From NCBI GenBank assembly GCA_023230905.1, contig JALNWL010000001.1:1-47676 (forward strand): a DNA stretch of 47,676 bases, written 5' to 3'. The translations under genes and the position numbers were made by a program. The notes under the pieces were generated by a model. The model did not search any database, was not told where the DNA came from, and saw only the letters and a program-made list of their open reading frames with translations. This DNA is from Syntrophales bacterium (lineage in GTDB: Bacteria; Desulfobacterota; Syntrophia; Syntrophales; UBA2251). Within the stretch, counting starts at the first letter, position 1, and each line of letters begins with the position of its first letter. Below are positions 1-22,703 of this stretch, one piece after another.

Positions 1-1
1 G

Positions 2-622
2 GCCACCTTCGGCCTGCTGCTGCTTCACGCCCTGCTCGCCCTGGTGGGATCCCAGGACCTCGCGGAGGGCCATCCGCTCGGGCGCCTTCTGGACGTCTTG
101 ATCGTCCTGGCGGGGTGGACGGGCCTGATCCTGGGGAACATCGGCTGCCTGGGGCTTTTCCATCGGCGGCTCGCCGATCCGGAATTGAGGGACTACGCGA
201 GCTTCGCCGATTACCTCAATCTCGGATTTATTTTTCTGTTCTTCCTCTGCGCCTTCGCGGCGGGTCTGGGCGATCCGTCGCTTGCGGGCGCCCGGGCCTA
301 TGCACTCGGCCTGCTGACCGCGGGGTCCGCGCCGGCGGCATCCGTTCCCGGTCCGTCCGCGGCCGGAATCGCAACCGTCGTCATGGCCTCACTCCTGGCC
401 GCCTATATCCCCCTGACGCACATGTCCCACATGCTGATGAAGTACTTCTTCTATCACAACGTCAAATGGGATGACGCCCCTAACCGCCGGGGCGGAAAGA
501 TCGAAGCGGCCGTCCGGAAAAACCTCGGGCTCAGGCCGACCTGGCAGGCCTGGCACGTGGGAGCGGACGGCCGGAAATCCTGGCGCGAGATCGCCGCTTC
601 GGAACCCGGAGAGATGAAATGA
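2..622 (+). CDS. NarI/DsrM-like integral membrane subunit, 5' end cut by window edge
   Basis: Frame is open from nt 2 (ATFGLLLLHALLAL...). Hydrophobic helices with C-terminal HMSHMLMKYFFYHNVKWDD tail. Stop TGA 620-622 overlaps ATG 619 of the next HdrD-like gene (ATGA coupling). Confidence 0.6.
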   Translation, partial: ATFGLLLLHALLALVGSQDLAEGHPLGRLLDVLIVLAGWTGLILGNIGCLGLFHRRLADPELRDYASFADYLNLGFIFLFFLCAFAAGLGDPSLAGARAYALGLLTAGSAPAASVPGPSAAGIATVVMASLLAAYIPLTHMSHMLMKYFFYHNVKWDDAPNRRGGKIEAAVRKNLGLRPTWQAWHVGADGRKSWREIAASEPGEMK

Positions 623-2232
623 GAACGAGACTCGCCCCCACAGACATCTCCCGGCCGTCCGACTGCCTGTCGCACATCGAGGCGGAGGATCTTGCGCCCC
701 TTCCGCCGCCCTATGAGGATTTCAATACCACGGCGATTCCCCCCCTCAAGCCGGAGAAGGTCCGGCACATCGAGACGTCCCTGGACGATACCGTGGCTCT
801 CGGCATCCCCAAGCCCGCAAGTCCGGAAGAGGAGGAGGCGCTGGTCCGCCAGTTCCTCTCCGGCCTGAAAAAACTCTTCGAGAAGGAAAACAACTGGACG
901 TTTCTGCAGCCGCTGCTTCTGTCCATGGAACACTGCGCCAAATGCCAGACCTGCGCCGACGCCTGCCCCGTTTTTGAAATGAGCGGCCGGAAGGAGATCT
1001 ACCGGCCCATCTTCCGAGCCGAGGTCCTGCGCCGGATTTACAAAAAGTATCTGAGGCCGGGCGGGAAGATCACGGCCAAGCTGACCGGCGACATCGATTT
1101 GAACTGGACGGCGATCGCGCGCCTGGCCGAGTTGTCCTATCGCTGCACCCTCTGCCGCCGCTGCGCCGCGGCCTGCCCGATCGGCGTGGACAACGGCCTG
1201 ATCGCGCACGAGATCCGCAAGCTCTTCTCGCAGGAAATGGGCATCGCCCCCAAGGAACTCCACGAAAAAGGAACCGTCCAGCATCTTCAGGTCGGCTCCT
1301 CCACCGGCATGAAACCCCCGGGCGCGAAGGACAGCCTCGAGTTCATCCAGGAAGAGATGGAAGAGATCACGGGCTACAAGGTGGACATCCCCTGGGATGT
1401 GGAAGGCGCGGACATCCTGCTCATCCACAATGCCGGCGAGATCCTGGCCTGGCCGGACAATGTCGGGGCGTTCGCCGTCATATTTCAGGCGGCCGGCGTT
1501 TCGTGGACACTGTCTTCGGAGGCGGCCGGTTACGACGTGGTCAACTACGGGCTGTGGTACGACGATGTCCAGTTTTCCCGTGTTGCCGTCCGGCATGCCG
1601 ATATCGCCCGCCGCCTCAAGGTCAAAAAGATCGTCATCGGCGAATGCGGCCATGCGCACAAGGCGCTCACGGTCGTCGCCGACCGCCTGCTGACGGGCGA
1701 TCTCAACATCCCGCGCGAATCCGCCTTGGTCACGCTCGCGGACATCGTCCTCAGCGGTAAATTGCGGCTCGATCCCCGCAGAAACGATTTCCCCGTGACG
1801 CTGCACGATCCCTGCAACATCGTGCGTTCCATGGGGATCGTGGCGCCCCAGCGGCGCATCCTGAAAAAGATCGCGCCGCGCTTCCGGGAAATGACGCCGC
1901 ACGGGGTGGAGAATTACTGCTGCGGCGGCGGTTCCGGGTTCGCCATCATGTCGGGACACAACTTCGTCGACTGGCGGAACCGGGTCAGTTCCCGCAAGAA
2001 ATTCCTGCAGATCTTGGCCGCCTTCGCCAACGAGCCGGCGGAGGTCCCGAAGTACGTCTGCGCCCCCTGCTCGAACTGCAAGGGCGCCATCCGGGATCTG
2101 ATCCGCTATTACCACGCGGAGGAACGCAGCCGCCTGTATTACGGCGGGCTGGTCGACCTGATCGTCAATGCCATGGCGGACATGAAAAAGCCGATCATCC
2201 GCTTCGGCGACGAACCGTCGTGGAAAGCCTGA
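619..2232 (+). CDS. HdrD/DsrK-like cytoplasmic Fe-S (CCG-domain) oxidoreductase subunit
   Basis: Two ferredoxin-type motifs (CAKCQTCADACP, CTLCRRCAAACP) and Cys-rich CCG-type motifs (NYCCGGGSGF, CAPCSNCKG). Translationally coupled to the upstream membrane subunit. Confidence 0.8.
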   Translation: MRTRLAPTDISRPSDCLSHIEAEDLAPLPPPYEDFNTTAIPPLKPEKVRHIETSLDDTVALGIPKPASPEEEEALVRQFLSGLKKLFEKENNWTFLQPLLLSMEHCAKCQTCADACPVFEMSGRKEIYRPIFRAEVLRRIYKKYLRPGGKITAKLTGDIDLNWTAIARLAELSYRCTLCRRCAAACPIGVDNGLIAHEIRKLFSQEMGIAPKELHEKGTVQHLQVGSSTGMKPPGAKDSLEFIQEEMEEITGYKVDIPWDVEGADILLIHNAGEILAWPDNVGAFAVIFQAAGVSWTLSSEAAGYDVVNYGLWYDDVQFSRVAVRHADIARRLKVKKIVIGECGHAHKALTVVADRLLTGDLNIPRESALVTLADIVLSGKLRLDPRRNDFPVTLHDPCNIVRSMGIVAPQRRILKKIAPRFREMTPHGVENYCCGGGSGFAIMSGHNFVDWRNRVSSRKKFLQILAAFANEPAEVPKYVCAPCSNCKGAIRDLIRYYHAEERSRLYYGGLVDLIVNAMADMKKPIIRFGDEPSWKA

Positions 2233-2263
2233 TCAAACGAACGAGGCAGAAGGAATCGCCCTC

Positions 2264-3301
2264 ATGACCCTTTTCGCACCGCTCATCGCCATCGCCCTCC
2301 TGATCGCCCTCCCCCTCGCGGGACTGGCGGCGAGCGGGGAAGGTTTGCTGGCCGTCGGCGTCCCCTACGCGGCCCTGGCGGTGCTCGTCGTCGGATTCGT
2401 CCGGCGCATCGCCCGCTGGGCGAACGCGCCCGTCCCCTTCCGCATCCCCACGACGGCGGGGCAGGGGCGCTCGCTCGACGGGATCAAACCGGACCGCCTC
2501 GACAACCCCGCGACGACCTGGGGCGTCCTCGGCCGGATGGCGCTTGAAATCCTCTGTTTCCGGTCGCTCTTCCGGAACACGAAACAACGCCTGGCGCCTC
2601 CGGCGCGGGCGGAAAGCGCCGGGGACAAAGCGGCGGCCACGGCCCGACCCGTTTATGTCAGCGCCAAGGGCCTGTGGTTCTTCGCGCTGCTCTTTCACGG
2701 GTCGCTTCTGGTGATCGTGCTCCGGCACCTGCGCTTCTTTCTCACGCCGGTCCCGACCTGGGTCGACGGCCTGATCGCGCTCGACGGCCTCTTCGCCGTC
2801 GGCCTCCCGACCGCCTACCTGTCCGACGCGGCGCTTCTCGCGGCCCTCTTGTTCCTGCTTCTCCGGCGGGTCCTGATCCAGCAGGTTCGCTACATCACGC
2901 TGGCGGCGGATTATTTTCCGCTGTTGTTGATCGGCGCAATCGCCGTTTCCGGCCTCCTGCTGCGGCATGCCTTCAAGGTCGATCTCAACCAGGTGAAGGC
3001 GCTCGCGGTGGGCTGGGCCACCTTTTCCCCGGCGGTCCCGGCGGAAACAGAGGCGTTCTTCTTCGTCCATCTCTTCCTGGTGTGCGCCCTGGCCGCCTAT
3101 CTCCCGTTCGGAAAACTCATGCATGGGGCGGGCGTTTTCCTGAGCCCCACCCGGAACCTCGCCAACGACAACCGGCGGCGGCGTCACGTGAACCCCTGGA
3201 ACGCGCCGGTGAAGGTGCATCCCTACGAAGAATACGAGGACGAATTCCGGGGCAAGATGAAGGCGGCGGGCATCCCCGTCGAGCGGGAGGAAGGATCATG
3301 A
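2264..3301 (+). CDS. dsrM: DsrM, membrane quinol-interacting subunit of DsrMKJOP
   Basis: Multi-helix NarI-like membrane protein with GAAGGAA RBS before ATG 2264. Sits first in a canonical M-K-J-O-P gene order. Confidence 0.8.
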   Translation: MTLFAPLIAIALLIALPLAGLAASGEGLLAVGVPYAALAVLVVGFVRRIARWANAPVPFRIPTTAGQGRSLDGIKPDRLDNPATTWGVLGRMALEILCFRSLFRNTKQRLAPPARAESAGDKAAATARPVYVSAKGLWFFALLFHGSLLVIVLRHLRFFLTPVPTWVDGLIALDGLFAVGLPTAYLSDAALLAALLFLLLRRVLIQQVRYITLAADYFPLLLIGAIAVSGLLLRHAFKVDLNQVKALAVGWATFSPAVPAETEAFFFVHLFLVCALAAYLPFGKLMHGAGVFLSPTRNLANDNRRRRHVNPWNAPVKVHPYEEYEDEFRGKMKAAGIPVEREEGS

Positions 3302-3373
3302 GACGGTTAGACTCCCGTTTCGCGAAGGGCGAAACGGAGACTTCCCGCAGAAATATCGACAGGACGTGCAACC

Positions 3374-5011
3374 ATGGCAATCGATAAACTTCCGACGCCC
3401 GAAGAACTGAGCCATATCGACTACCGGCCTCCCGGAACCGGATGGCGGAACACCCCGGTGGATTTCCGTCCGGGGACCTGGTGCTACAGCGCCACCCCGA
3501 AAAGCCTGACCACCCTGGATCTCCCCAATCCCCGGCAGTGGCAGCCGTCGGACGCGGACTGGAAGCTCCCTGAGAACTGGCGAACAATCATCCTCGATGG
3601 CATGCGGGAGCGCCTGGAGAAGTACCGGTCGTTCCGGCTCTTCATGGACATCTGCGTCCGCTGTGGGGCCTGTGCGGACAAGTGCCACTTCTACATCGGG
3701 ACGGGAGATCCGAAGAACATGCCGATCCTGAGGGCGGAACTGATCCGGAGCGTCTACCGCCGCTACTTCACGACGGCCGGGCGCATCCTCGGCCCTCTCG
3801 CCGGGGCGCGGGACCTGACCGAGGACGTCCTGAAGGAGTGGTTCTACTACTTCTACCAGTGCACGGAGTGCCGCCGCTGCTCCGTCTTCTGCCCCTACGG
3901 CATCGACCAGGCGGAGATCACGATGATCGGCCGGGAGCTTCTGACCCTCGTCGGCTGCAACATCAACTGGGTCCTCGAACCGGCGGCGAACTGCTTTCGG
4001 ACGGGGAACCACCTGGGCATCCCGCCCCACGGGATCAGGGATATGCTCGACTTCCTCGTCGACGATATCAAGGACCGCACGGGCGTCCGCGTGGAGGTCC
4101 CCCTGAACCGGAAGGGCGCCGAGATCCTCTTCGTCACGCCGTCGGGGGACTACTTTGCCGACCCGGGCACCTACACCTGCATGGGCTACCTGATGCTCTT
4201 CCACGAGCTTGGTCTCGACTACACGATGAGCACCTACGCCTCCGAAGGGGGAAATTTCGGCCTGTTCACCTCCCACGAGATGATCAAGCGCTTAAACGCC
4301 AAGATCTACGCCGAGGCGAAGCGCCTGGGCGTGAAGTGGATCCTGGGCGGCGAGTGCGGCCACATGTGGCGGGTCGTCCACCAGTACATGGACACGATGA
4401 ACGGCCCGGCCGATTTCCTCGAGGTCCCCGTCTCGCCCATCACGGGAACGCGGTTCGAAAACGCCGCCGGGACGAAGATGGTCCACATCGCCGAGTTCAC
4501 GGCCGACCTGATCCAAAACGGAAAACTCAGGCTCGACCCCGCCCGGAACGACCACCTGAGGGTCACCTTCCACGACTCGTGCAACCCCGCGCGGGCAATG
4601 GGCCTCCTGGAGGAGCCGCGCACGATTATCCGGCATGCCTGCAACCATTTCTTCGAGATGCCGGAAGATACGATCCGTGAAAAGACCCTCTGCTGCGGTG
4701 GCGGGGCGGGACTGGGAACGGACGAGAACATGGAGATGCGGATGCGCGGGGGCTACCCCCGGGCGATGGCGGTGAAACATGTCCGGGAACGGCACGGCGT
4801 GAACCGCTTGGCCTGCATGTGCGCCATCGACCGGGTAACGCTACCGCCCCTGATGGATTACTGGGTCCCCGGGGTCGGGGTCACGGGCGTGCACGAGCTC
4901 TTGGGCAATGCCCTGATCCTGACGGGAGAAAAGCAACGGACGACGGACCTGCGGGGAGAGCCCCTCCTCCGGGCGTCGCATGCGGACGGGGTACACGAAG
5001 CGAAGGGATGA
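3374..5011 (+). CDS. dsrK: DsrK, HdrD-like catalytic Fe-S subunit of DsrMKJOP
   Basis: CVRCGACADKCH and CTECRRCSVFCPYG cluster motifs plus CCGGGAGLG CCG motif. About 545 aa, located between dsrM and dsrJ. Confidence 0.85.
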   Translation: MAIDKLPTPEELSHIDYRPPGTGWRNTPVDFRPGTWCYSATPKSLTTLDLPNPRQWQPSDADWKLPENWRTIILDGMRERLEKYRSFRLFMDICVRCGACADKCHFYIGTGDPKNMPILRAELIRSVYRRYFTTAGRILGPLAGARDLTEDVLKEWFYYFYQCTECRRCSVFCPYGIDQAEITMIGRELLTLVGCNINWVLEPAANCFRTGNHLGIPPHGIRDMLDFLVDDIKDRTGVRVEVPLNRKGAEILFVTPSGDYFADPGTYTCMGYLMLFHELGLDYTMSTYASEGGNFGLFTSHEMIKRLNAKIYAEAKRLGVKWILGGECGHMWRVVHQYMDTMNGPADFLEVPVSPITGTRFENAAGTKMVHIAEFTADLIQNGKLRLDPARNDHLRVTFHDSCNPARAMGLLEEPRTIIRHACNHFFEMPEDTIREKTLCCGGGAGLGTDENMEMRMRGGYPRAMAVKHVRERHGVNRLACMCAIDRVTLPPLMDYWVPGVGVTGVHELLGNALILTGEKQRTTDLRGEPLLRASHADGVHEAKG

Positions 5012-5072
5012 AGCGGCGGGGCGAGGCGGACCCGTTCGGGGGCGCCTGCCGCCGGGAGAGGATCATCGGACC

Positions 5073-5579
5073 ATGAAGGGAACGGATCGCTGGAAAATCT
5101 TTGCGGGGTTGTTCGTCTTCCTCGCGCTCGCCGCCCTGCCCTTCTGGTACGGCGGGTGGGACAGGCCGGCGCCGGTCCTCGATCTCGACACCCCGGCCAT
5201 CCGGCAACTGCCGGAAAGGCGATGCGTCGAGGCCACCGCGTTCATGCGGGCGAACCACATGACGCTGCTGGCCGACTGGCGGGACGCCTCGACCCGGGAC
5301 GGGCGGCGGATCTACGTCGCGCGGGACGGGCGGGAAATCGAGGCGAGCCTGTCTCAGACGTGCCTGCGCTGCCACACCGACAAGACCCGCTTCTGCGACC
5401 GCTGTCACGACGACGCGGGCGTGAGTCCCACCTGCTGGGACTGCCACGTCGTCCCGGAGGACCGGCGTGAATCGGCGACGGTCACGCACAGGCAGAGGGG
5501 GGAAGGGGGGGACGTGTCCCCGTTCCCCGTTGACGTTGCCGCACGGGAAAAAGAAAGCCGGGGACCTGGTCCCCGATGA
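5073..5579 (+). CDS. dsrJ: DsrJ, triheme periplasmic cytochrome c
   Basis: N-terminal membrane anchor and exactly three CXXCH motifs (CLRCH, CDRCH, CWDCH). Has the RRCVEATAFMRANHM segment expected for the His/Cys-ligated haem. GGGAGAGG RBS before ATG 5073; the longer track ORF starting at 4980 is not needed. Confidence 0.8.
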   Translation: MKGTDRWKIFAGLFVFLALAALPFWYGGWDRPAPVLDLDTPAIRQLPERRCVEATAFMRANHMTLLADWRDASTRDGRRIYVARDGREIEASLSQTCLRCHTDKTRFCDRCHDDAGVSPTCWDCHVVPEDRRESATVTHRQRGEGGDVSPFPVDVAAREKESRGPGPR

Positions 5580-5603
5580 AACTTGCATGCAGGGACAGAG
5601 GTT

Positions 5604-6383
5604 ATGCACAGTAGCCGCAGAGACTTTTTGAAACTGACGGGCATTGCCCTGATCGGCGCCGCCGTCCCCGACGCGCTGCTTCCGGCCGGGCTTGCGCCGG
5701 CATGGGCGGGAGCACCCGGCTTCCGCCCGGATGTCCGCGCGCTCAAGGCCGCGCGCTGGGGGATGGTCATCGACCTCGCGAAATGCCGCCCGGACTGCAC
5801 GGACTGCATCGCCGCCTGCCACGCGGCCCACAACGTCCCCGCTTTCGGCAATCCGAAGGACGAGATCGCCTGGATCCGCCGGGAGACCTTCGGTCGGATC
5901 TTCCCCGCGCAGGTCCACAGGCACCTCGAACCCCGGCGTCAGGCGGGGCCGGTGATCGCCCTGTGCAACCACTGCGCGAATCCGCCCTGCGTCCGCGTCT
6001 GCCCCACGGGGGCGACCTTTCGGCGGCCCGACGGAATCGTCATGATGGACTACCACCGGTGCATCGGCTGCCGTTTCTGCATCGCGGCCTGCCCCTACGG
6101 CGCCCGCGGCATGAACTATCGCGATCCCCGGCCGTTCATCCGCCGCATCGATCCCGGGTTCCCGACGCGAACGAGGGGCGTCGTGGAGAAGTGCAATTTC
6201 TGTGTGGAGCGGCTGGCCGTGGGAAAGCCGCCCGCGTGCGTCGCGGCCTGTCCCTACGGCGCCCTGACTTTCGGCGACCTGGAGGCGCCCGACTCCGCGG
6301 TGCGGCGCGCAATCGCCGGAAGAACGGTCCTCCGGCGTAAACCGGAACTGGGCACGGAGCCCCAAGTTTATTATACGTTATAA
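5604..6383 (+). CDS. dsrO: DsrO, Tat-exported 4Fe-4S ferredoxin-like subunit
   Basis: Twin-arginine signal SRRDFLK and several CxxCxxCxxxCP motifs (CIGCRFCIAACP, CNFCVERL...CVAACP). ATG 5604 is preceded by AGAGG; the track start 5583 is a TTG. Confidence 0.85.
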   Translation: MHSSRRDFLKLTGIALIGAAVPDALLPAGLAPAWAGAPGFRPDVRALKAARWGMVIDLAKCRPDCTDCIAACHAAHNVPAFGNPKDEIAWIRRETFGRIFPAQVHRHLEPRRQAGPVIALCNHCANPPCVRVCPTGATFRRPDGIVMMDYHRCIGCRFCIAACPYGARGMNYRDPRPFIRRIDPGFPTRTRGVVEKCNFCVERLAVGKPPACVAACPYGALTFGDLEAPDSAVRRAIAGRTVLRRKPELGTEPQVYYTL

Positions 6384-6404
6384 GATGAGGAACCGGGGGA
6401 TGAC

Positions 6405-7562
6405 ATGCTAGAGAAGGCCCTGCACGGAAATCACCGCTACTGGGGATGGCTCGCGTTCCTCGCCGTCGTCGTCGGCGCGGGCGCGTTTTTCTACCTCCGG
6501 CAGCTCGACTACGGCCTGGGCATCACGGGGATGAGCCGGGACGTCACCTGGGGGCTCTACATCGCCCAGTTCACGTTTCTGGTCGGGATCGCCGCCTCGG
6601 CCGTCATGGTCGTCCTGCCCTATTACCTCCACGACTACAAGGCGTTCGGCCGGATCACGATCCTGGGCGAATTCCTCGCGGTCGCCGCCGTCGTCATGTG
6701 CGTGACCTTCATCGTCATCGACCTCGGCCGGCCTGAACGCGCCTTCAACGTCCTGCTGCACCCTGCCCCCCGCTCTATCCTCTTCTGGGACATGGTCGTC
6801 CTGACGGGCTACCTCGTGCTCAACCTCGTTATCGGCTGGACGGTCCTGGAGAACGAGCGCAACGGCAAGGCGCCGCCCGCCTGGGTCAAGCCCCTGATCC
6901 TGCTTTCGATCCCCTGGGCGATCAGTATTCATACGGTCACGGCCTTCATCTACGCCGGCCTGCCGGGACGGGACTTCTGGCTGACGGCCATCATGGCCCC
7001 CCGCTTTCTCGCCTCCGCCTTCGCCTCGGGGCCTGCGCTGCTCGTGCTCCTCTGCCTCGTTCTGCGGCGCTGGGGCGGCTTCGACGCGGGCCGCGAGCCG
7101 CTCCAGGCGCTGGCCCGGATCATCGCCTACGCCTTGGCGGCGAGCCTCTTCTTCGTCCTCATGGAGCTCTTCACGGCCTTCTACAGCGGCATCCCCGGCC
7201 ACACGGAACCGTTCCGCTACCTCTACGCCGGTCTGGACGGGCACACGCGGCTTGTCCCGTGGATGTGGACCTCGGCCGTCCTGGCGGTCCTGGCCCTCGT
7301 GCTCCTGATCGTTCCGGCGCTGCGGCGCAACGAAGCCTGGCTCGCCCTGGCCTGCCTGGCCGTCTTCGCCTCGCTGTGGATCGAAAAAGGGCTGGGGCTT
7401 GTCGTCACGGGGTTCATCCCCTCCCCCCTGGGCCAGATCACCGAATACACGCCCACCGGCCCCGAGGTCGCGATCACGCTGGGCGTCTGGGCGCTGGGAT
7501 TCGTCATCCTGACGGCCCTCTACAGGATCGCCCTGGGCGTCAGGAAGGAAACGGAGGCATAG
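6405..7562 (+). CDS. dsrP: DsrP, NrfD/PsrC-like integral membrane subunit
   Basis: About 10 hydrophobic helices, NrfD-like size, located directly after dsrO. Confidence 0.8.
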   Translation: MLEKALHGNHRYWGWLAFLAVVVGAGAFFYLRQLDYGLGITGMSRDVTWGLYIAQFTFLVGIAASAVMVVLPYYLHDYKAFGRITILGEFLAVAAVVMCVTFIVIDLGRPERAFNVLLHPAPRSILFWDMVVLTGYLVLNLVIGWTVLENERNGKAPPAWVKPLILLSIPWAISIHTVTAFIYAGLPGRDFWLTAIMAPRFLASAFASGPALLVLLCLVLRRWGGFDAGREPLQALARIIAYALAASLFFVLMELFTAFYSGIPGHTEPFRYLYAGLDGHTRLVPWMWTSAVLAVLALVLLIVPALRRNEAWLALACLAVFASLWIEKGLGLVVTGFIPSPLGQITEYTPTGPEVAITLGVWALGFVILTALYRIALGVRKETEA

Positions 7563-7568
7563 ACGATC

Positions 7569-8771
7569 ATGAAGACCCTCTACGTCGAGACCACGCCCGC
7601 CCGCTTCCTCGCCGTCAAGACCCTCCGCGGGCTCTGGCCGGGCGTGCTGTGGAGCCGCCTGTCCACGCTCCAGTATCGGGAGATGACGCCGACCGCCCCG
7701 CCGGCCGGCTGGGTCCACGTGAAAAATCACCAAGGCGGAATCTGCGGAAGCGATCTGCACCTGATCTTCCTCGACGCCGATCTGAGCGTCCACCCGGCCC
7801 TCCTGCCGGGCAGCACACGCAAGTACCTGGGGCACGAACTCGTGGGGCACGTCCTGGAAGCACCCCCGGACAGCGGCTTCAAGCCCGGCGACCGGGTCAT
7901 CCGGCAGATGCGCACCGGCGGCGGCTCCTGCCTGGCGCATGGCCTCGCCCCCTGCGGTTTCTGCCGGGCGGGTCAGTATCACCAATGCGAGCGAACGGGA
8001 CTCCCGGATTCCATCGGCGGGGGACTGAGCGACGAGCTTTACCTCCCCGCCGGGGGCCTGATGGCGGTCCCCGACGATCTCGCGGACGCGCAGGCGGTTC
8101 TGGTCGAGCCGGCGGCCTGCGCCATCCACGGGGTTCTGCGCGCACCGCCCAATCCCGGGGAGGCGGTCCTCGTCTACGGGGCGGGCACGATCGCCTATTT
8201 CGTCCTGCAGGTCCTCCGAATCGTCCTTCCGGACTGCCGGATCACGGCGATCGCCGAATTCCCCTTTCAGGAAGACATGGCCCGGCGGTGCGGGGCGGAC
8301 GAGGTCTGGCTGGCGCACGACGATCTCCTCGCCAGGACCGCGGCGCGGACGGGGGGGCGGGTCGTCACCGGCCGGGCAAACCGCCGGACCCTCCTGGGCG
8401 GCTTCGACCGGATCTACGACTGCGTGGGTGTCGCCGCGACCCTCGGGCTCTCCCTGCGCCTCGCGCGGGCGCGCGGCACCGTCATCCTGATCGGCGTTAC
8501 CCTCAAACCCCTGACGCTGGACATGACGCCGGTGTGGTACAATGAGGTGAACCTGGTGGGCAGCGTCTCCTTCGCCGCCGAAGCGTGGCGAGGGGAGCGG
8601 ATCCGGGACTTCGATCTCGCCATCCGCTGGATGCGGGAGGGGCGGCTGAAGACGGAGGGGTTCGCCACGCACCGCTTCCCGCTGGAACGGTACCGGGAGG
8701 CGATCCTGGCCGCCGTGCGGAAGGCGTCCAGCCGCTCCGTGAAAGTGGTGCTGGAGATGGAGAAGAGCTGA
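7569..8771 (+). CDS. Zn-dependent alcohol dehydrogenase (MDR superfamily), substrate unknown
   Basis: GICGSDLH and GHE catalytic Zn motifs, structural Zn Cys cluster [20 protein letters not shown], and VYGAGTIA nucleotide fold. Starts only 6 nt after the dsrP stop. Confidence 0.8.
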
Positions 8772-8861
8772 GGGCGAACGGTCAACGGCGTAAAGCGAAG
8801 GGAACGGACCAAGGCGCAGGTCAAGCGACCCCGGGGAAAAGATTTGAATACAAAAATGGCC

Positions 8862-10073
8862 ATGAAGATTCTGGTTCTCAACTGCGGAGGCTCGTCGGTG
8901 AAGTACAAGCTCTACGACATGGAAAGCGGCCGGGTGGTGGCGCTCGGCTTTGCGGAACGGATCGGCCTGGCGGGCTCCGGGATCCGTCATCAGGCGGAGG
9001 GCGCGGCGGCCGTTTCCTTCGAACACACCCTGCGGGATCACCGGGAAGCGCTGGAAATCCTACTCGGGATGCGGCCCGGCGGTCCGCGTGCGGGCAGCAT
9101 CGACCCCGCGGCGATCACGGCCATCGGTCACCGGGTGGTCCACGGCGGCGAATATTTCCGGACCCCCGTGATCATCGACGACGCGGTCCTCGTCAATCTG
9201 AAGGCGTGCAGCACGCTGGCCCCTCTCCACAACCCCCACAACCTGGCGGGAATCGAGGTCTGCCGGAAACTGCTGACGGAGGTGCCGCAGGTGGCCGTCT
9301 TCGACACGGCCTTCCACCAGACCATGCCCCCCCTGGCCTACACATACGCGATCCCGCATCGTTACTACGACACCTACCGGATCCGCAAATACGGCTTCCA
9401 CGGCACCTCCCACCGCTACGTGGCCGAGCGCGCCGCCGAACTCGCGGGCCGTCCCCTGGCGGAGCTGAAGATCGTAACCTGCCACCTCGGGGCGGGGTGC
9501 AGCCTCTGCGCCGTCCGCGACGGGCACTCCATCGATACGACGATGGGCTTCACGCCGCTCGCGGGTGTCGTCATGGGAACCCGCTCGGGGGACATCGATC
9601 CCGCCCTCGTCCCGTTCATCGCCGACAAGGAAGGCCTGCCGCCCGCCGCCGTTATGGACATCCTGAACTCCGAAAGCGGGGTTTTCGGGATCTCCGGGAT
9701 CTCCGGCGATTTCCGGGATCTCCTGAAGGCCGCGCGGGAGGGGAACGAACGGGCGACACTCGCCCTGGACGTCTTCACGTACAGCATCGCCAAGGGGATC
9801 GGTTCGCTCCTGCCGGCCCTGGAGGGACTCGACGCCCTCGTTTTCACGGCCGGCATCGGCGAGAACTCGCCCGACATCCGCAGGCTGATCTGCCGGCGTC
9901 TGGCATATTTCGGCATCACGCTGGACGATGGGAAGAATGCCCTTGCCCGAACGGAAACGGACGTCGCGACGACGGAGAGCCGGGTCAGGATCTACGTCAT
10001 CCCGACGGACGAGGAGCGCATGATCGCCCGGGAAACGCGGAAGCTCATCGATCCTGGGCGGGGACCCGGCTGA
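8862..10073 (+). CDS. ackA: acetate kinase
   Basis: Canonical N-terminus [18 protein letters not shown], with HRVVHGG and GFHGTSH motifs. The track start 8844 is a TTG; ATG 8862 gives the usual length of about 403 aa. Confidence 0.9.
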
Positions 10074-10159
10074 AGGGCGGCAGCGGCAGCATCCCCCGCC
10101 GGGGAATCAAAGGGGTCAACCGGACAACGAACGAAATTCAACGCAATGGAGGTATCAAC

Positions 10160-11914
10160 ATGGCCAAGATCAAAATGACGCCCAGTGAGGCGATTGTGGA
10201 AACCCTGCTCGCCGAAGGCGTGGATCACGTCACCGGCATCGTCGGGAGCGCCTTTATGGACATGCTCGATCTCTTCCCCACGGCGGGGATCCGTTTCATC
10301 CCCGTTCGGCACGAGCAGAGCGCGGGGCACATGGAGGACGCCTACGCCCGGATCACCGGCCGGGCCGGGGTTCTCACGGGTCAGAACGGACCGGGGATCA
10401 CGAACATGGTCACCTCGGTCGCGGCGGCCAACATGGGCCATACGCCGCTCGTCATCATCTCCCCGTCGGCCGGGACGCCGACCATCGGCTGGGACGGTTT
10501 CCAGGAGTGCGACCAGGTCTCCGTCTTCAAGGCCATCACGAAGGCCACGGTCCGCGTGCCCCATCCCAAGCGGGCGGCCGACTGCCTGCGGACCGCCTTC
10601 CGGATCGCGTACGCCGACCGTGGGGCGGTCCTGTACGACATCCCCCGGGACTACTTCTACGGCGAGTTGGAAGAGGAGATCCTTCCGCCCCACCGCTACC
10701 GCGTGGACGCCCGGGGCTGCGGATCGCTCGCCGACATCGAGCGGGCGGCGAAGCTCCTCATGAACGCGAAGAACCCCGTCATCGTCTCCGGACGGGGGGT
10801 CGTGGACGCGGACGCCCTGGACGTGATCAAGGCCATTGCCGAGCACCTGACCGCGCCGGTCGCCGTGACCTATCTGCACAACGACGCCTTCTACGGGGAC
10901 CACCCCCTGTTCGTCGGCCCCATCGGGTACATGGGCTCCAAGGCGGCAATGCGGACCCTGGCCAAGGCGGACGTGATGCTCGCCGTGGGAACGCGCCTGT
11001 CGGTCTTCGGCACCCTGCCCCAGTACGACATCAACTACTTCCCGAAGAAGGCGAAGATCGTCCAGGTGGACATCAACCCGAAACACATCGCCCGGACGCA
11101 CCCCGTCGAGATCGGCATCATCGGGGACGCGAAGGAGGCCGCGGTGGAGATCCTGAAGCGCCTCCGGACCGCGGACAAGCGGCGGAAGCCGGATACGGCG
11201 CGCCTGGGGAAAATCGCCGCGGAGAGGAAAAAATGGGAGCAGGAGATCGTCCGGTTGGCGAGGGTCAAGGGAACGCCGATCAACCCCCGCCGCGTCCTTT
11301 TGGAGATGTCGCGGATGATGCCGGACAACGCCATCCTGACGACGGACATCGGCAACGTGTCCTCGACCGCCAACAGCTACTTCACCTTCAAGGGCGGCCG
11401 GCGCCACATCGCGGCACTCACCTTCGGCAACACGGGCTTCGCCTACCCGGCGGCCCTGGGCGCCCAGCTCGCCCGCCCCAAGGCGCCGGTCGTCGCCATC
11501 ATCGGCGACGGGGCCTGGGGGATGAGCCTCCACGAGATCAGCACCGCCGTGGAGCACAACCTGCCGGTCATCGCCTGCGTCTTCAGGAACATGTGGTGGG
11601 GCGCCGAGGCGAAGAACCAGGTGGACTTCTACAACAACCGCTTCATCGGGGTCGACATCCCGAACCCCGCGAGCTTCATCCCGGCGGCGGAGGCCCTGGG
11701 CGCCCGCGGCATCCGCGTGGAGCATCCGGACCAGATCGGGGAGGCCTTCAAATCGGCCCTCAAGATCCGCCGGCCCACCGTCCTGGAGTTTGTCGTGGAC
11801 GGCCGGCAGCTCGCCCCGCCCTTCCGGAAGGACGCCCTGGCGCTGCCCACGCGGCTCCTGCCGAAGTACGCCCACCTGGACCACCACAACTGGCGGACGG
11901 ACTACGACATGTAG
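10160..11914 (+). CDS. xsc: sulfoacetaldehyde acetyltransferase (Xsc)-like thiamine-diphosphate enzyme
   Basis: GGAGGT RBS then ATG 10160, 584 aa. TPP fold (GDGAWGM). Xsc-like blocks as I remember them: MTPSEA..VETL N-terminus, [35 protein letters not shown]. The 1109-aa track ORF is a composite. Confidence 0.75.
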
Positions 11915-11932
11915 CCCCCTCCCGAAACAAGG

Positions 11933-11974
11933 CCGCGGACCCGGCGGGGGTTGTTCCCCCGATCGGGTCCGCGG
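11933..11974 (+). terminator. strong GC hairpin after xsc (terminator-like, no clear U-tract)
   Basis: CCGCGGACCCG (11933-11943) pairs with CGGGTCCGCGG (11964-11974), with an inner GGGGG-TTGTT-CCCCC. Begins 18 nt after the xsc stop. Confidence 0.5.
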
Positions 11975-12280
11975 ATGCTTCCCGCCCCAGCGGCTGCGGC
12001 ACAGGCACCGGCTCCACGCTTCGGGTCGATAGGGTCACGTTCACTTGCCTGCGGGAAGAAGCGCCGCTCGAAGCCCCCGTGACGGTATGATCCCTGCAGC
12101 AAATGACCCAACGAAAAGATTGAATTGACATCCGGGGCGGGCTTCCCTATAGTGCCGCCGTCCACAGCCGAGACGTCGCCCTTCCGGGGAGGGTCCCGTT
12201 TTTCAGTGCAACGTCGCCATCACTGCAGATACGGCCTTTCGATCAACCCGAGACCCTCCGCCCCATGGAAAGGAATGCGC

Positions 12281-12823
12281 ATGTTGTATGAATTCGACGG
12301 CAGAACCCCACAGGTCGCCGACGGCGCCTATGTCAGCGACACCGCTACGGTGATCGGCGACGTCGTGATCGGCCCCCATTGTTACATCGGTCACGGCGCC
12401 ATCCTGCGGGGGGACTACGGCCGGATTGAGATCGGTCCGGGAACGGCAGTGGAGGAGGGCGTCATCATCCATGCCCCGCCGGAACGGGTCTGCCGGATCG
12501 GTGAAAAGGTCACCCTGGGACACGGGGCGGTCATTCACGGCCAGAGGCTCGGAGATTGCTCCGTCGTCGGCATGGGTGCGGTTTTGAGCATCCTCTCCGA
12601 GATCGGCGAATGGACCATCGTGGCGGAGGGGGCCGTTGTCAAGATCGGCCAGGCGATCCCGGATGGGATGGTCGCCGTGGGGAACCCGGCGGCCGTCGTT
12701 CGCGAGATCGCCGACCGGGACCGGGAGATGTGGAGCTGGGGCAAGCAGATCTACATCGATCTTGCGGAGAAATACCTGCGGGTCGGCCTTCATCCCGTTG
12801 CTCCGGACGGGCGGAACGGATAA
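12281..12823 (+). CDS. gamma-carbonic-anhydrase-like / hexapeptide-repeat (CaiE/PaaY/YrdA family) protein
   Basis: Left-handed beta-helix repeats (VIGDVVIGPHCYIGHGAILRGD...). GGAAAGGA RBS before ATG 12275/12281. Confidence 0.8.
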   Translation: MLYEFDGRTPQVADGAYVSDTATVIGDVVIGPHCYIGHGAILRGDYGRIEIGPGTAVEEGVIIHAPPERVCRIGEKVTLGHGAVIHGQRLGDCSVVGMGAVLSILSEIGEWTIVAEGAVVKIGQAIPDGMVAVGNPAAVVREIADRDREMWSWGKQIYIDLAEKYLRVGLHPVAPDGRNG

Positions 12824-12898
12824 CGAGGCCCGCCCCTCTCGGGATGACGATGAAGCGAACGCGACTTCGTTTCGGCAGAAGACTTGGAGACGACCGTT

Positions 12899-14377
12899 TC
12901 AGCCCCTCGGGAGCCCGGCGAGCCGTTCCTTTAACTCATTCGCAATATCGCTCATTTCTGCGCGGCCAAATAGATTATTCATCTCTCCCGGATCGCTTTT
13001 CAGATCAAAAAGCCAAGGACGTCTGCCGCGTTCAAACTCAATGTATTTGAAATTTTCGGTACGAATGCCCCGGTATGATGGCGTGTTTTCCGGGTAATAG
13101 CGCCAGAATTCAAGAAGGCAGGCCTCTCTGGTTTTCCCGCGGGGGTTCCCGAGAACAGGGGCAAGGCTGATACCGTCCATATCTCCGGGAACCTCAAGGC
13201 CCGCCAGGTCAAGCATCGTCGGGGCAACGTCAATATTCAAGATCATCTGATGTCTCCTTCCCCCGGGGTCATGAATGATGACGGGTGCCCTCACGATAAA
13301 AGGAAGGCGGATTGAATCCTCATAGGGTTCGCGAATTCCGTGGCAATGATGGGTTCCCCACTGCATGCCATTGTCACCCATGTATACCACGATGGTTTTC
13401 TCGCTCAGGTTGTGCCGGTCCAGATAATCGAGAATTCGGACGATATCCCGATCCATGGCGGTAAGGGTTTCGCAGTAGCGTCGATACTGATCCTCATAGG
13501 AGCCCATCATGATGCCCTGGAAGACATTCCCCCTCGTTTTCCCAAACCATATCGGGTCGACGTTCGGCGGAAGCACCCGGCTCACATCCGCGTCATGATA
13601 CATTCCAGCAATGTCCGCGGGCGCCTGAAAGGGCGGATGACCGGGCCGGTGCGCGAGATAGACGCAGAAGGGTCTGCCGTCATTTCGCGATCTCTGCTGG
13701 TCAATAAACTCGATCGCGTAATCCGTCACTTCCTCGGTGATATAGGGCTTGCGGGAAGGCACTTCGCGGCCATTGACAATCATCGGGCAGTTGAAGTAGG
13801 CACCCTGCCCCTCGCGATAGGTGTAGGCCACAAAAAGATCAAGAAAGGGGAGATGGGGCAAGCCGCCGGGCATGTGCCACTTCCCGATGAATGCCGTGGC
13901 GTATCCCTCACGACTCAGATATTCCGGGAAGGTCGTGAACCTGCCTGTCCAAGCGGTATGATTGTTCCTGACGCCATGCCGGTGGGCATAGGCCCCCGTC
14001 AGAATGCTGGCGCGGGAGGGGCTGCACAGAGCGGTGGTATTGAAGGCCTGCTCGAAAAGAACCCCTTCCCGGGCCAGCCTGTCCATTCCCGGGGTTTGAA
14101 TGAAGGGATGATGCGCACAGCCCATTGTTTTTGCGTTATGATTATCGCCGAGGATAAACAGGATATTGGGCCTGTTACCACCCCGCCTGCCGCGAGATCG
14201 CACAAGGGGGATGCCCGCCTTCGCTTTTTCACCCAAGGGTCGTTCCGTGGCACCGAGCCTATCTCCCAGCAGGCCGTATGCCGCATATCCCGCAAAGCCG
14301 GCCCCGAGGACTCTTCCTCCGGCCTTCAAAAGATCCCGTCTGGTTAAAACAGGGCGTTTATTTTCTCTGTTCATCAT
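12899..14377 (-). CDS. Tat-exported Cys-type sulfatase (arylsulfatase family)
   Basis: Twin-arginine signal TRRDLLKAGG and formylglycine motif CSPSRASILTG. Sulfatase-type N-terminal block NILFILGDNH. Confidence 0.85.
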   Translation of the reverse strand: MMNRENKRPVLTRRDLLKAGGRVLGAGFAGYAAYGLLGDRLGATERPLGEKAKAGIPLVRSRGRRGGNRPNILFILGDNHNAKTMGCAHHPFIQTPGMDRLAREGVLFEQAFNTTALCSPSRASILTGAYAHRHGVRNNHTAWTGRFTTFPEYLSREGYATAFIGKWHMPGGLPHLPFLDLFVAYTYREGQGAYFNCPMIVNGREVPSRKPYITEEVTDYAIEFIDQQRSRNDGRPFCVYLAHRPGHPPFQAPADIAGMYHDADVSRVLPPNVDPIWFGKTRGNVFQGIMMGSYEDQYRRYCETLTAMDRDIVRILDYLDRHNLSEKTIVVYMGDNGMQWGTHHCHGIREPYEDSIRLPFIVRAPVIIHDPGGRRHQMILNIDVAPTMLDLAGLEVPGDMDGISLAPVLGNPRGKTREACLLEFWRYYPENTPSYRGIRTENFKYIEFERGRRPWLFDLKSDPGEMNNLFGRAEMSDIANELKERLAGLPRG

Positions 14378-14418
14378 CGTCCCCCGCCGAGCGGCTTGCG
14401 GGTTGCTCCACGTTGTTC

Positions 14419-14982
14419 CTACAAGCCGCTTCCAAAAAAGAACCGGTATCCTTCAAGAAAGATCACATAGATATTTTCGCCCCTGCCCCAGGCGTACATC
14501 AGGGCAAAGACCGTGAGGCTCCCGGCAATGATCAGCGCGGGAACTCTCATGGAGTATGCCTTTTCATTCCTTTGGATGCGGATCTTTCTTACAATGAGCG
14601 CCGCGACACCTAACTCGGCACACATCAGGACAAAAAGCCAGATGCTCAGAGGGCTGAGATACCAGTAAAGGCATTCAAGGACGGGGTGGGATTCCGTCAG
14701 GATGAGCACTTCCTTTGTAATCCACGCAAAAGGTGTGACAAATGAAGCCAGGACACTCTCCGCCAAAGAGGCCCCCCGAAGCTGGGAAACCGTATAGACA
14801 TACAAAGCCCCGAAGGAAATCGAGACAAAATAGAAAAAGCCTGAAAGAGTCGCAACAACGAGGGTGAATGTTGTCCGGTCGGGAAACCTCAGGAAAAAGT
14901 AAACTGCGAACGAAAGCAGGGCCGCAACAAAAACGGGCAAGACCGGCATCCCTACGCGCAAAATAAATGATTTCCGTCCCAT
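14419..14982 (-). CDS. hypothetical polytopic membrane protein (co-directional with the sulfatase)
   Basis: Five to six hydrophobic helices and no recognised motif. ATG 14982 is chosen here; the track ORF extends to a GTG at 15063. Confidence 0.5.
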   Translation of the reverse strand: MGRKSFILRVGMPVLPVFVAALLSFAVYFFLRFPDRTTFTLVVATLSGFFYFVSISFGALYVYTVSQLRGASLAESVLASFVTPFAWITKEVLILTESHPVLECLYWYLSPLSIWLFVLMCAELGVAALIVRKIRIQRNEKAYSMRVPALIIAGSLTVFALMYAWGRGENIYVIFLEGYRFFFGSGL

Positions 14983-15230
14983 CGCCTCACCATCCCAATC
15001 GGAAACTCTCTTCACATTGATTTGCGGCGTCCATATAAGCTTATCGGCACGAGATGAAGTCACGTCGTTTATATTTCCGGGACTTCCGGCGGAAGAAAGC
15101 GGGTGGAGGAAGTCCCGCGGTCATACACAAACGGACACGGTTGATACCGAGACGGCGGAAGGAATGACGTTAAGTTTACCATGGACAGGCGAAGAAGGCC
15201 AGCGCGATTGTCGAGGCGGATAAAATCTTC

Positions 15231-15259
15231 TTGACACACACAAGAGACCCGAATACACT
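15231..15259 (+). promoter_or_regulatory. candidate sigma-70 promoter for the PLP-enzyme operon
   Basis: TTGACA (15231-15236), 17-nt spacer, TACACT (15254-15259), about 70 nt upstream of the CDS. Confidence 0.35.
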
Positions 15260-15328
15260 CCACTCTACACGAGTGAAATTCTTATCCATCCTTGGCTTTC
15301 CACCGCATGATGAATATGTGTTCATTTT

Positions 15329-16690
15329 ATGAATCGGGATTCATTGAATGAGGGAATGGGGATGATACAGATCGCACTTCCCAACAAGGGCGCTTCGCGC
15401 GATGGGGTGATGAGGGAGCTCAAGGCCCTGCATTCCGCGGACAACGATTGGCGGACGGGGCGGATGTTCAGCCTCATCTACAACGCCGGGGCCGATGTGG
15501 AATCGGTCGCCCGGGAGGCCTACGCCGAGTACATGGTGGAGAACGCGCTGAGCCCCTTCTCCTTCCCAAGCCTCCTCAAGATGGAGACGGAGTTGCTCTC
15601 CATGATCGCCACGCTCTTTCACGGGGAGACGGCCGTGGGCAGCATGACCTCGGGCGGATCGGAGAGCATCCTGATGGCGGTGAAGACCGCGCGGGAATGG
15701 GCGCGCGCGAAGCGGCCGGGGATCTCCTCCCCCGAGCTGGTCATGCCGGTCACCGCCCACCCGGCGTTCAACAAGGCGGCCCACTTCCTGGGGATCAGGG
15801 CGGTGGCGGTCCGCGTCGATGGCGGATTCCGCGCGAGCGTCCCGGACATGATCGGCGCGGTCACGGAGAACACCATCATGATGGTGGGGAGCGCCTTCAC
15901 CTATCCCCACGGCATGATCGATCCCATCGGCGAGCTTTCCGGCTTCGCGCTTGAAAACAACATCTGGTTCCACACCGACGCCTGCCTGGGAGGGTTCATG
16001 ATTCCCTTCCTCGAAATGGAGGGATACCCGGTGCGCCCCTTCGACTTCAGGCTTCCCGGCGTCAAGTCGATCTCGGCCGACATCCACAAGTACGGATACA
16101 CCCCGAAGGGGGCGTCGACGGTCACCTATCGCGACATGGATCTCAGGGAGTTCCAATTCTTCGCGTACGCGGACTGGCCCGGCGGTGTGTACGGGACGGC
16201 CTGCGTCTCCGGCGCTCGCCCCGGGGGGGCCATCTCCTCCGCATGGGCCGTGATGCGCTACCTCGGCCAAGAGGGGTTCCGCGGGCTTGCGTCGAAGGCC
16301 ATGAGGGCCGCCAAGCGTCTCAGGGCGGGTATCGAGGCGATTCCCGGCCTCCATGTTCTCGGGAACCCCGACGGGACCGTCTTCGCTTTCGGGAGCGACG
16401 GGTTGAACGTCTACGACCTGCGCGACGCCCTCAAGCGGCGGAACTGGCACGTGGAGAGCCAGCACCTCCCGCCCTGCCTGCACCTTACCGTCTGCCCCGT
16501 CCACGAGGAGGTCGTGGACGCGTTCCTCGAGGATCTCGCGGAGGCCTGCGGCGAGGCGGCTTCCGTGAGCGAGAACGACAGGACCGAAGACGCGGTGCTC
16601 TACGGGGTGATGGGGACCATCCCCGACAGGAGTCAGGCCCTGGATCTGGCGGTAAAATACCTCAACGACCTGTACAGGATCAAGCCATAA
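15329..16690 (+). CDS. PLP-dependent group II decarboxylase/lyase, sphingosine-1-phosphate-lyase-like
   Basis: PLP-lysine block SISADIHKYGYTPKGAS closely resembles the SPL-type motif SISADTHKYGF.PKG. No N-terminal TM segment. The true start may be ATG 15362. Confidence 0.7.
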   Translation: MNRDSLNEGMGMIQIALPNKGASRDGVMRELKALHSADNDWRTGRMFSLIYNAGADVESVAREAYAEYMVENALSPFSFPSLLKMETELLSMIATLFHGETAVGSMTSGGSESILMAVKTAREWARAKRPGISSPELVMPVTAHPAFNKAAHFLGIRAVAVRVDGGFRASVPDMIGAVTENTIMMVGSAFTYPHGMIDPIGELSGFALENNIWFHTDACLGGFMIPFLEMEGYPVRPFDFRLPGVKSISADIHKYGYTPKGASTVTYRDMDLREFQFFAYADWPGGVYGTACVSGARPGGAISSAWAVMRYLGQEGFRGLASKAMRAAKRLRAGIEAIPGLHVLGNPDGTVFAFGSDGLNVYDLRDALKRRNWHVESQHLPPCLHLTVCPVHEEVVDAFLEDLAEACGEAASVSENDRTEDAVLYGVMGTIPDRSQALDLAVKYLNDLYRIKP

Positions 16691-16698
16691 CGCACGAA

Positions 16699-17418: not shown

Positions 17419-17458
17419 CCCGCGGCGGCGCTCCGAAGACCTTCAACCAGGAGGCGCC

Positions 17459-18634: not shown

Positions 18635-18699
18635 CCGCGGACGGGAGGCCTCGACCGCGCCCCTTGTCTTTCCGCCATGAGACAAAACGTTCCCGGGAC

Positions 18700-20488: not shown

Positions 20489-20494
20489 GATCTG

Positions 20495-20535: not shown

Positions 20536-20541
20536 ACCGTT

Positions 20542-22648: not shown

Positions 22649-22703
22649 TCCGCGGTGAAGCTTGCGTGTTCGGGTTTGACCCCGTTTGGATCTGCACGGG
22701 CAC

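Follow-up and report, generated by a model that had tools for sequence, protein, structure and literature searches.

A dsr locus continued by ackA and xsc in Syntrophales: a candidate gene string for sulfoacetaldehyde-based sulfonate respiration

A whole clade of Syntrophales (Smithellaceae and their relatives) has long been seen as obligate fermentative syntrophs, and the Dsr step, which involves DsrAB, the DsrC trisulfide and the DsrMKJOP membrane complex, is established pathway knowledge. Experimental proof that sulfoacetaldehyde acetyltransferase (Xsc) is coupled to this step in the respiration of sulfonates comes, to our knowledge, from gut Desulfovibrionaceae only. The stretch 1-47,676 of contig JALNWL010000001.1 (GCA_023230905.1) from an uncultured Syntrophales bacterium related to Syntrophaceae and Smithellaceae, referred to below as the window, begins with dsr genes that are followed on the same strand by genes for an alcohol dehydrogenase (ADH), acetate kinase (AckA) and Xsc, and hence raises the question of whether an enzyme that releases sulfite and the machinery that consumes it belong to a single unit. 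The original prediction took region 2-11974 as such a unit, dedicated to sulfonate respiration and distinct from a housekeeping dsr locus. The answer that we consider probable, if by no means certain, is that this region is part of one string, SDR-TPP2-MFS-TetR-dsrABDNC-M′K′-dsrMKJOP-adh-ackA-xsc-hairpin, which would serve sulfoacetaldehyde-based sulfonate respiration (SDR, short-chain dehydrogenase/reductase; TPP2, a thiamine diphosphate (ThDP) enzyme; MFS, major facilitator superfamily transporter; M′ and K′, paralogues of DsrM and DsrK). Neither the parts nor the logic of the pathway are new; what is new is the fusion architecture, the lineage and an entry to sulfoacetaldehyde that lacks tpa/ald.

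The genes of the window were called from a listing of open reading frames (ORFs) and filtered by the GC content of third codon positions (GC3), and were then scanned with Pfam and NCBIfam, the NCBIfam equivalog or subfamily cut-offs being the criterion for gene identity. The exact K′ and Xsc proteins were looked up in public assemblies, which yielded contigs of the same species. As had been predicted, ten co-directional genes were found on the plus strand (2-11914), and they are followed by a hairpin:

2..622, plus strand: M′, a DsrM-like membrane b-type cytochrome paralogue, 3′ part (Pfam Nitrate_red_gam, weak)
619..2232, plus strand: K′, a DsrK-like iron-sulfur/CCG protein and DsrK paralogue (NCBIfam DsrK 339.8 bits, under the cut-off of 400)
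2264..3301, plus strand: dsrM (NF038037, 434.5 bits > 300)
3374..5011, plus strand: dsrK (NF045796, 741.5 bits > 400; CCG, two 4Fe-4S motifs)
5073..5579, plus strand: dsrJ, triheme cytochrome c (NF038038, 143.4 bits > 100; three CxxCH)
5604..6383, plus strand: dsrO, Tat-exported FeS protein (NF045797, 294.8 bits > 200; N-terminal RRDFLK)
6405..7562, plus strand: dsrP, NrfD-type membrane subunit (NF045798, 485 bits > 350)
7569..8771, plus strand: adh, Zn-dependent alcohol dehydrogenase of the medium-chain dehydrogenase/reductase (MDR) type (Pfam ADH_N, ADH_zinc_N)
8862..10073, plus strand: ackA, acetate kinase (TIGR00016, 469.7 bits > 293.4; Pfam Acetate_kinase, 467 bits)
10160..11914, plus strand: xsc, sulfoacetaldehyde acetyltransferase (TIGR03457, 833.9 bits > 676.4)
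11933..11974, plus strand: strong GC-rich hairpin (18 pairs, local dG -42.9 kcal/mol)

The identities proposed for DsrM, DsrK, DsrJ, DsrO, DsrP, AckA and Xsc were borne out, since all of them score above their NCBIfam cut-offs. The canonical dsrMKJOP is contiguous at 2264-7562, with all five subunits over equivalog cut-offs and with complete cofactor motifs (three CxxCH in DsrJ, CCG and two 4Fe-4S in DsrK, Tat in DsrO), and the start of dsrJ agrees with the call in all public contigs. The predicted dsrMKJOP anatomy holds for this segment, but not for the first two genes (2-2232), which are the M′ and K′ paralogues. K′ is 31% identical to DsrK and carries two CxxCxxCxxxC motifs and CCG, and the NCBIfam DsrM model gave no match to M′, either for the window gene or for the full-length copies (313 aa) of the same-species contigs L007-L009. 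Because K′ lies below the DsrK cut-off and M′ lacks a DsrM match, both were treated as a DsrMK-like pair outside dsrMKJOP. This pair, which is located between dsrC and dsrM and is kept in most Syntrophales relatives, is perhaps a second DsrC- or heterodisulfide-type reductase module.

The tight packing was also as predicted. M′ and K′ overlap by 4 nt, K′ and dsrM are 31 nt apart, and the gaps inside dsr are 72 nt (dsrM to dsrK), 61 nt (dsrK to dsrJ), 24 nt (dsrJ to dsrO) and 21 nt (dsrO to dsrP). The dsrP stop (TAG, 7560-7562) is separated by 6 nt from the adh ATG (7569), whose GGAGG ribosome-binding site falls within the 3′ coding end of dsrP; the gap from adh to ackA, put at about 90 nt, is 72, 84 or 90 nt depending on the ackA start (TTG 8844, ATG 8856 or ATG 8862), and that from ackA to xsc is 86 nt. 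The GC and GC3 of adh-ackA-xsc run on continuously from the dsr genes. Furthermore, codon positions 1 and 2 are better kept than position 3 in adh, ackA and xsc, a pattern indicative of purifying selection acting on the three genes. The xsc frame stays open 1.5 kb further 5′ across ackA (8585-11914), and the resulting 1109-aa ORF is a spurious high-GC artefact that could mislead ORF-based annotation.

Xsc, an oxygen-insensitive and ThDP-dependent enzyme, carries here the TPP_enzyme_N, M and C domains (Pfam), and is 78% identical to Desulforamulus ruminis Xsc and 78-80% identical to the Firmicutes Xsc encoded in GntR-tauABC-ald-tpa-xsc clusters. The NCBI annotation of these proteins is already sulfoacetaldehyde acetyltransferase. 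The family assignment is secure, and from it we infer the catalytic activity. A mis-called acetolactate synthase was considered and rejected, with Xsc above its equivalog cut-off and the acetolactate synthase models far under theirs. The partner of Xsc that uses acetyl-phosphate is also present, in the form of the ackA gene 86 nt upstream; AckA is about 60% identical to both Smithellaceae AckA and Bacillota AckA, which does not distinguish its origin.

The genes that precede the window were read from the same-species contigs. In these, dsrA-dsrB-dsrD-dsrN-dsrC lie directly upstream of M′K′ on the same strand, with DsrA, DsrB and DsrC above their NCBIfam cut-offs and a DsrC C-terminus of the form CysB-X10-CysA-V. 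Upstream of dsrA, again on the same strand, are the genes for the SDR, the 565-aa ThDP enzyme TPP2, the MFS transporter and a TetR regulator, the end of the latter being 61 nt from dsrA. Between dsrA and xsc there are 15 genes in about 16.8 kb, with a largest gap of 114 nt, and region 2-11974 is the distal two-thirds of this longer co-directional string. It is literally correct that the window contains neither dsrAB nor dsrC, since it begins about 1.1 kb downstream of dsrC; but the contrast drawn between a dedicated unit and a housekeeping dsr locus fails, because dsrABDNC is contiguous upstream on the same strand and the region is therefore the tail of the dsrAB locus itself. To place the locus among its relatives, a DsrP-anchored scan of the GTDB species representatives was carried out and the best 80 matches were kept as loci. 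The second dsrMKJOP beside dsrAB for which the original prediction had suggested a check did not appear, as there is one DsrP locus per close genome among these 80 matches, and together with the contiguity of dsrABDNC this rules out a second, specialised dsrMKJOP copy. It could also be argued that the locus is an assembly chimera of a dsr contig and an xsc contig. However, the gene order is identical in at least eight independent assemblies and in two sister species, and the same junctions were recovered in contigs from ENA, NCBI (two metagenome-assembled genomes, MAGs), JGI (three metagenomes) and Logan, so that the probability of a chimera is vanishingly small. Metagenome samples that carry the contig include JGI 3300009715, 3300009693 and 3300025677. 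In the same-species JGI contig L007, both dsrA and dsrP are broken into two ORFs (4477-5675 and 15787-16943), which probably reflects frameshifts introduced in sequencing or assembly, or variation within the population.

Is the association of dsr and xsc more than a chance neighbourhood? Among the best 80 matches, the DsrP of the window is closest to those of ‘Syntrophaceae bacterium UBA2251’ (96%) and ‘Syntrophales bacterium AMR_MDS_1568’ (94%), and the next relatives are many Smithellaceae, Smithella and Syntrophaceae MAGs with 71-76% identity. The locus proteins were run by tblastn against the 80 loci, 62 of which have at least 3 kb downstream of dsrP; 22 of these, with at least 70% DsrP identity, were taken as the clade, and the other 40 belong to Nitrospirota, Desulfobacterales, Acidobacteriota and other lineages. 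Xsc was counted as linked when it showed >60% identity and lay no more than 10 kb downstream of dsrP. It was found in 13 of the 22 clade loci and in none of the 40 others, and ackA or xsc was present in 15 clade loci, with neither gene in any of the 40. The linkage, whose possible restriction to this assembly had been raised as an objection, is thus kept across many Syntrophales species. The arrangement around it varies. The Smithellaceae-type order is dsrP-[CoA-disulfide-reductase/rhodanese fusion in some]-[ackA]-xsc-SDR-TPP2-MFS-ADH2-TetR, and the insert between dsrP and ackA/xsc may be an ADH, the CoA-disulfide-reductase/rhodanese fusion, or nothing, with the distance from dsrP to ackA/xsc often being 27-53 nt. 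In the window species and both of its sisters, the place between dsrP and ackA is taken by a different MDR-type ADH. The block SDR-TPP2-MFS-TetR lies upstream of dsrA in the window species, and the sister contigs end before that point. The dsr-xsc linkage has therefore outlasted several rearrangements, which argues for selection on the association. Within the loci compared, the arrangement exceeds chance and is clade-specific, and the conserved synteny strongly supports a functional coupling of Xsc and Dsr.

These data also bear on the simplest explanation, namely that this is the housekeeping dsr locus of an ordinary sulfate reducer, with an unrelated catabolic neighbour that lies downstream by chance. 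The dsrABDNC-MKJOP genes do form the canonical core, and loci like this one occur in many sulfate-reducing Desulfobacterota. A chance neighbour, however, is hard to reconcile with an xsc linkage that 13 of the 22 clade genomes keep through several rearrangements and that none of the 40 other dsrP loci shows, or with an SDR-TPP2-MFS-TetR block that has moved in the window species yet is still attached to the dsr locus. In addition, a digester study reported that most of its 25 putative sulfate/sulfite-reducer bins, one Smithellaceae among them, have partial pathways, typically without sat or aprA (PMC12495138). We consider a housekeeping locus with a chance neighbour quite unlikely. A side observation concerns the variable insert: in L016 (11158-12855) and L021 (11158-12852) a CoA-disulfide-reductase-like flavoprotein with a rhodanese domain overlaps the dsrP stop and precedes ackA/xsc, and the same fusion is present, as judged by spacing only, in L022, L031 and L037. 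It is another sulfur-handling gene, in the slot that the ADH fills in the window.

If the string works as a pathway, a sulfonate would be imported and turned into sulfoacetaldehyde, by a route that we infer. The ADH may oxidise isethionate to give sulfoacetaldehyde or, alternatively, the SDR and TPP2 may take a C3 sulfonate (sulfolactate) via sulfopyruvate to sulfoacetaldehyde. Xsc would then convert sulfoacetaldehyde and phosphate into acetyl-phosphate and sulfite, and AckA would convert acetyl-phosphate into acetate and ATP. The sulfite would be reduced by DsrAB onto DsrC, and the DsrK subunit of the quinol-linked DsrMKJOP would reduce the DsrC trisulfide with release of H2S. With adh-ackA-xsc behind dsrP, sulfite production would be co-inherited with the machinery that consumes sulfite, and an internal electron sink for a syntroph would result. 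The same genes could be explained by sulfonate fermentation or a gain of carbon and ATP, in which Xsc and AckA perform substrate-level phosphorylation, as in Desulfonispora thiosulfatigenes, and Dsr mainly detoxifies or disposes of sulfite. The position of ackA immediately beside xsc fits such a scheme, Xsc-based taurine fermentation is known (cited in PMC10507020), and a gene of the TauE sulfite-exporter family lies 4.8 kb downstream. The TauE gene, however, is part of a species-specific insertion that is absent from the sister species, and a complete quinol-linked DsrMKJOP with DsrC and DsrD in the same string is typical of energy-conserving sulfite reduction, so that we regard fermentation as improbable, if somewhat less so than a housekeeping locus. 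What the original prediction had proposed is supported in part: the tight packing and the sulfite-releasing enzyme beside the DsrC-recycling complex are retained, the synteny proves to be conserved, co-expression stays a prediction, and the opposition between a dedicated and a housekeeping locus is given up.

The entry into this pathway may depend on genes that have no characterised counterpart. The ADH is an intact Zn-dependent MDR enzyme (GHE, Cys ligands, structural Zn cysteines, GxGxxA), and TPP2 is a three-domain protein nearest to 2-hydroxyacyl-CoA lyase (HACL), oxalyl-CoA decarboxylase (OXC) and benzaldehyde lyase (BAL). Assignment of ADH, SDR and TPP2 to characterised enzymes was attempted and failed, as the closest relatives in the PDB are of a general kind only (ketose reductase/TDH in the case of the ADH, HACL/OXC/BAL in that of TPP2). 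Outside Syntrophales, homologues of the ADH (47-63% identical) are repeatedly grouped in one module with a TPP2-like ThDP enzyme, with an MFS transporter and with another dehydrogenase, either 3HCDH-like or an SDR. Such modules occur in Peptococcaceae, in other Bacillota MAGs and in Ca. Amarolinea, those of Bacillota adding a pyridoxal phosphate (PLP) decarboxylase, and in one Bacillota MAG the module abuts a taurine-xsc cluster. The combination ADH-MFS-ThDP enzyme-SDR looks like a widespread, uncharacterised four-gene catabolic module. On the basis of family and gene context, the ADH is proposed as an isethionate/sulfoacetaldehyde (or other hydroxy-sulfonate) dehydrogenase, and our working hypothesis is that ADH, SDR, TPP2 and MFS form an uncharacterised route from a hydroxy-sulfonate to sulfoacetaldehyde, with isethionate, sulfolactate (via sulfopyruvate) and 2,3-dihydroxypropane-1-sulfonate (DHPS) as candidate substrates.

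We then turn to whether the string ends where it was predicted to end, and whether it is transcribed as one. The hairpin at 11933-11974 is real and the only strong one, with a dG of -42.9 kcal/mol against -29 or weaker for all intergenic hairpins from dsrA to xsc. It has no U-tract and therefore is not a canonical intrinsic terminator; it is kept in the two sister species with compensatory changes, and is a probable transcript 3′ end or stabiliser. The window is collinear with both sisters over 1-11993 at 93% nucleotide identity, and collinearity breaks 19 nt after the hairpin at a synteny breakpoint. The gene unit stops at this hairpin. The co-directional genes, the short gaps and the lack of an internal intrinsic terminator are features expected of a single operon, the transcript itself being predicted, and adh-ackA-xsc are probably co-transcribed with the dsr genes, to judge from this layout. 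Scans for consensus sigma-70 promoters and terminators found no plus-strand site at 3000-11900 (dsrM to xsc), but their counts were at chance level and this absence therefore carries little weight. The sigma-54 motif gave a single chance-level match elsewhere in the window, Rfam gave no match in the window, and intergenic conservation is not above the level of third codon positions and gives no sign of regulatory elements.

Several observations weigh against a single string for sulfonate respiration. All NCBIfam matches of ADH, SDR and TPP2 are below cut-off, and no Tpa/Ald, TauXY, IseJ, SauS or ComDE was found within the window or the 10 kb that precede it. Consistently, neither an Aminotran_3 or AlaDh gene nor a gene of the size or kind of a glycyl-radical enzyme (GRE domain) was present among the scanned window ORFs or the genes called in the 10 kb upstream. 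In L028 (Deltaproteobacteria bacterium HGW-12, 11258-17900) the order is dsrP-ackA-SDR-TPP2-MFS-TetR without xsc, which means either a loss of xsc or an ability of the ThDP enzyme and AckA to work without Xsc there. Ca. Amarolinea aalborgensis (L097, 7001-12281), a Chloroflexota filament from activated sludge, carries ADH-MFS-ThDP enzyme-SDR with no xsc nearby, the identities to the Syntrophales proteins being 47% (ADH), 34% (ThDP enzyme) and 45% (SDR). Finally, moderate hairpins are present between ackA and xsc (-23.9 kcal/mol) and between dsrK and dsrJ (-28.6 kcal/mol), and the spacers before ackA (72-90 nt) and before xsc (86 nt) could house promoters. These last points lead to an alternative with the same function and a different organisation, in which ackA, xsc and possibly adh are read from their own sulfonate-inducible promoters, and adjacency reflects co-inheritance or island insertion and not co-expression. 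Both spacers are long enough for promoters, the ackA-xsc spacer holds a moderate hairpin, the dsrP-ackA gap reaches 374-468 nt in L019 and L025, and a TetR regulator is part of the module. On the other hand, dsrP and adh are only 6 nt apart with the adh ribosome-binding site inside dsrP, several relatives have gaps of 27-53 nt, the chance-level scans revealed no promoter- or terminator-like site on the plus strand at 3000-11900, and intergenic conservation is no higher than that of third codon positions. Separate units are a serious but less favoured possibility, and a single co-expressed string for sulfonate respiration is the reading that we keep.

Beyond the synteny breakpoint, the neighbourhood changes. 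A block of 6.66 kb (11994-18651), which begins 19 nt past the hairpin and is absent from the two sister species, encodes a hexapeptide protein of the gamma-carbonic-anhydrase/PaaY-like type, an arylsulfatase-like protein (from a gene of low GC, about 55%), a hypothetical protein, an MfnA-like PLP decarboxylase, the protein of the TauE sulfite-exporter family and a membrane protein with DUF819. Between this decarboxylase and that of the Bacillota ADH/ThDP-enzyme module the identity is 47-48%, and the gene content is a hint of another accessory island, for sulfonates or sulfate esters. The segment 12125-12203 contains a near-consensus sigma-70-like promoter (TTGACA-17-TATAGT, 11/12) and, about 25 nt beyond it, a GC hairpin with a T-run. 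These elements, which have no Rfam match and lie upstream of an ATG at 12281, could be a leader/attenuator or a small RNA. A second block (20490-22736) is missing from the sister species L011. On the minus strand at 20542-22089 there is a gene for an octaheme cytochrome c of the tetrathionate-reductase family (TIGR04315, 603 bits > 375). Its neighbours are a split YeeE-like pair for sulfur transport (19440-20488), a CBS protein and a PhsA/Fdh-like molybdopterin oxidoreductase gene (22743-24851, minus strand), the last of which is below all cut-offs.

The locus suggests that organisms presumed to be obligate syntrophs are able to respire organosulfonates, with H2S as a product. Syntrophales carry the ‘uncultured DsrAB family lineage 6’ (PMC10591310), MAGs of Smithella or Smithellaceae that carry dsr genes have been described as those of putative sulfur or sulfate reducers (PMC5946492, PMC12495138), and the co-occurrence of xsc and dsrAB at the genome level was noted earlier (PMC12019592). 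In the searchable literature, to which the search was confined, we found neither a link between Syntrophales or Smithella and xsc or sulfoacetaldehyde, nor a description of a dsr-xsc gene fusion. On our reading, the hitherto unexplained dsr genes of Syntrophales (DsrAB lineage 6, PMC10591310) are predicted to have a role in physiology, syntrophic fatty-acid oxidisers to have an alternative electron sink, and biogas reactors and low-sulfate sediments to receive H2S that does not depend on sulfate. Smithella-type MAGs, which are abundant in anaerobic digesters, are among the carriers of the conserved string. ADH, SDR, the ThDP enzyme, MFS and TetR are concrete candidates for the uncharacterised pathway that forms sulfoacetaldehyde. 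A bolder version, which we advance tentatively and think doubtful as it stands, is that across the clade Dsr is primarily a machine for organosulfonate respiration, encoded in a supra-operon of about 21 kb that includes an undescribed SDR/ThDP/MDR-ADH/MFS route replacing Tpa/Ald, IseJ or ComDE. If this were true, the clade would contribute H2S to anaerobic digesters and freshwater sediments in a way that has been overlooked, and its methanogenic partners could be bypassed when sulfonates are on hand.

The closest known system is that of Taurinivorans muris (Desulfovibrionaceae), in which the same Xsc-AckA-Dsr logic was shown experimentally (PMC10507020): Xsc yields acetyl-phosphate and sulfite, AckA yields ATP, and DsrAB-DsrC/DsrMKJOP carry the respiration. 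Unlike the Tpa-Ald-Xsc-AckA route of that organism, the window locus has no tpa/ald in it or near it; it belongs to a different order, Syntrophales, its accessory MDR-ADH, SDR, HACL/BAL-like ThDP enzyme and MFS are uncharacterised, and its xsc and ackA are joined to the end of the dsr locus itself, an arrangement not reported in PMC10507020. The Firmicutes taurine clusters (Desulforamulus ruminis; Bacillota MAG GCA_020725625.1) share an Xsc with 78-80% identity and, in the Bacillota MAG, a nearby ackA and homologues of the window ADH (62%) and PLP decarboxylase (48%) that adjoin the taurine cluster. In contrast to the window, these clusters have a transporter, Tpa and Ald, and dsr genes are not adjacent to them. 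In Roseovarius nubinhibens, sulfolactate is converted into sulfopyruvate (SlcD/ComC) and then into sulfoacetaldehyde (ComDE), the substrate of Xsc. The Smithellaceae order xsc-SDR-TPP2-MFS suggests a similar dehydrogenase and ThDP enzyme ahead of Xsc, but TPP2 resembles HACL, oxalyl-CoA decarboxylase and benzaldehyde lyase and not ComDE, the substrate is a candidate only, and the setting is anaerobic, with coupling to Dsr instead of sulfite export or oxidation. Finally, Bilophila wadsworthia (Tpa-SarD-IslAB) releases sulfite by means of a glycyl-radical isethionate sulfite-lyase, whereas the window has no gene for such an enzyme; in both cases, if our reading of the Syntrophales string is right, an organosulfonate feeds sulfite to a DsrAB-based respiration.

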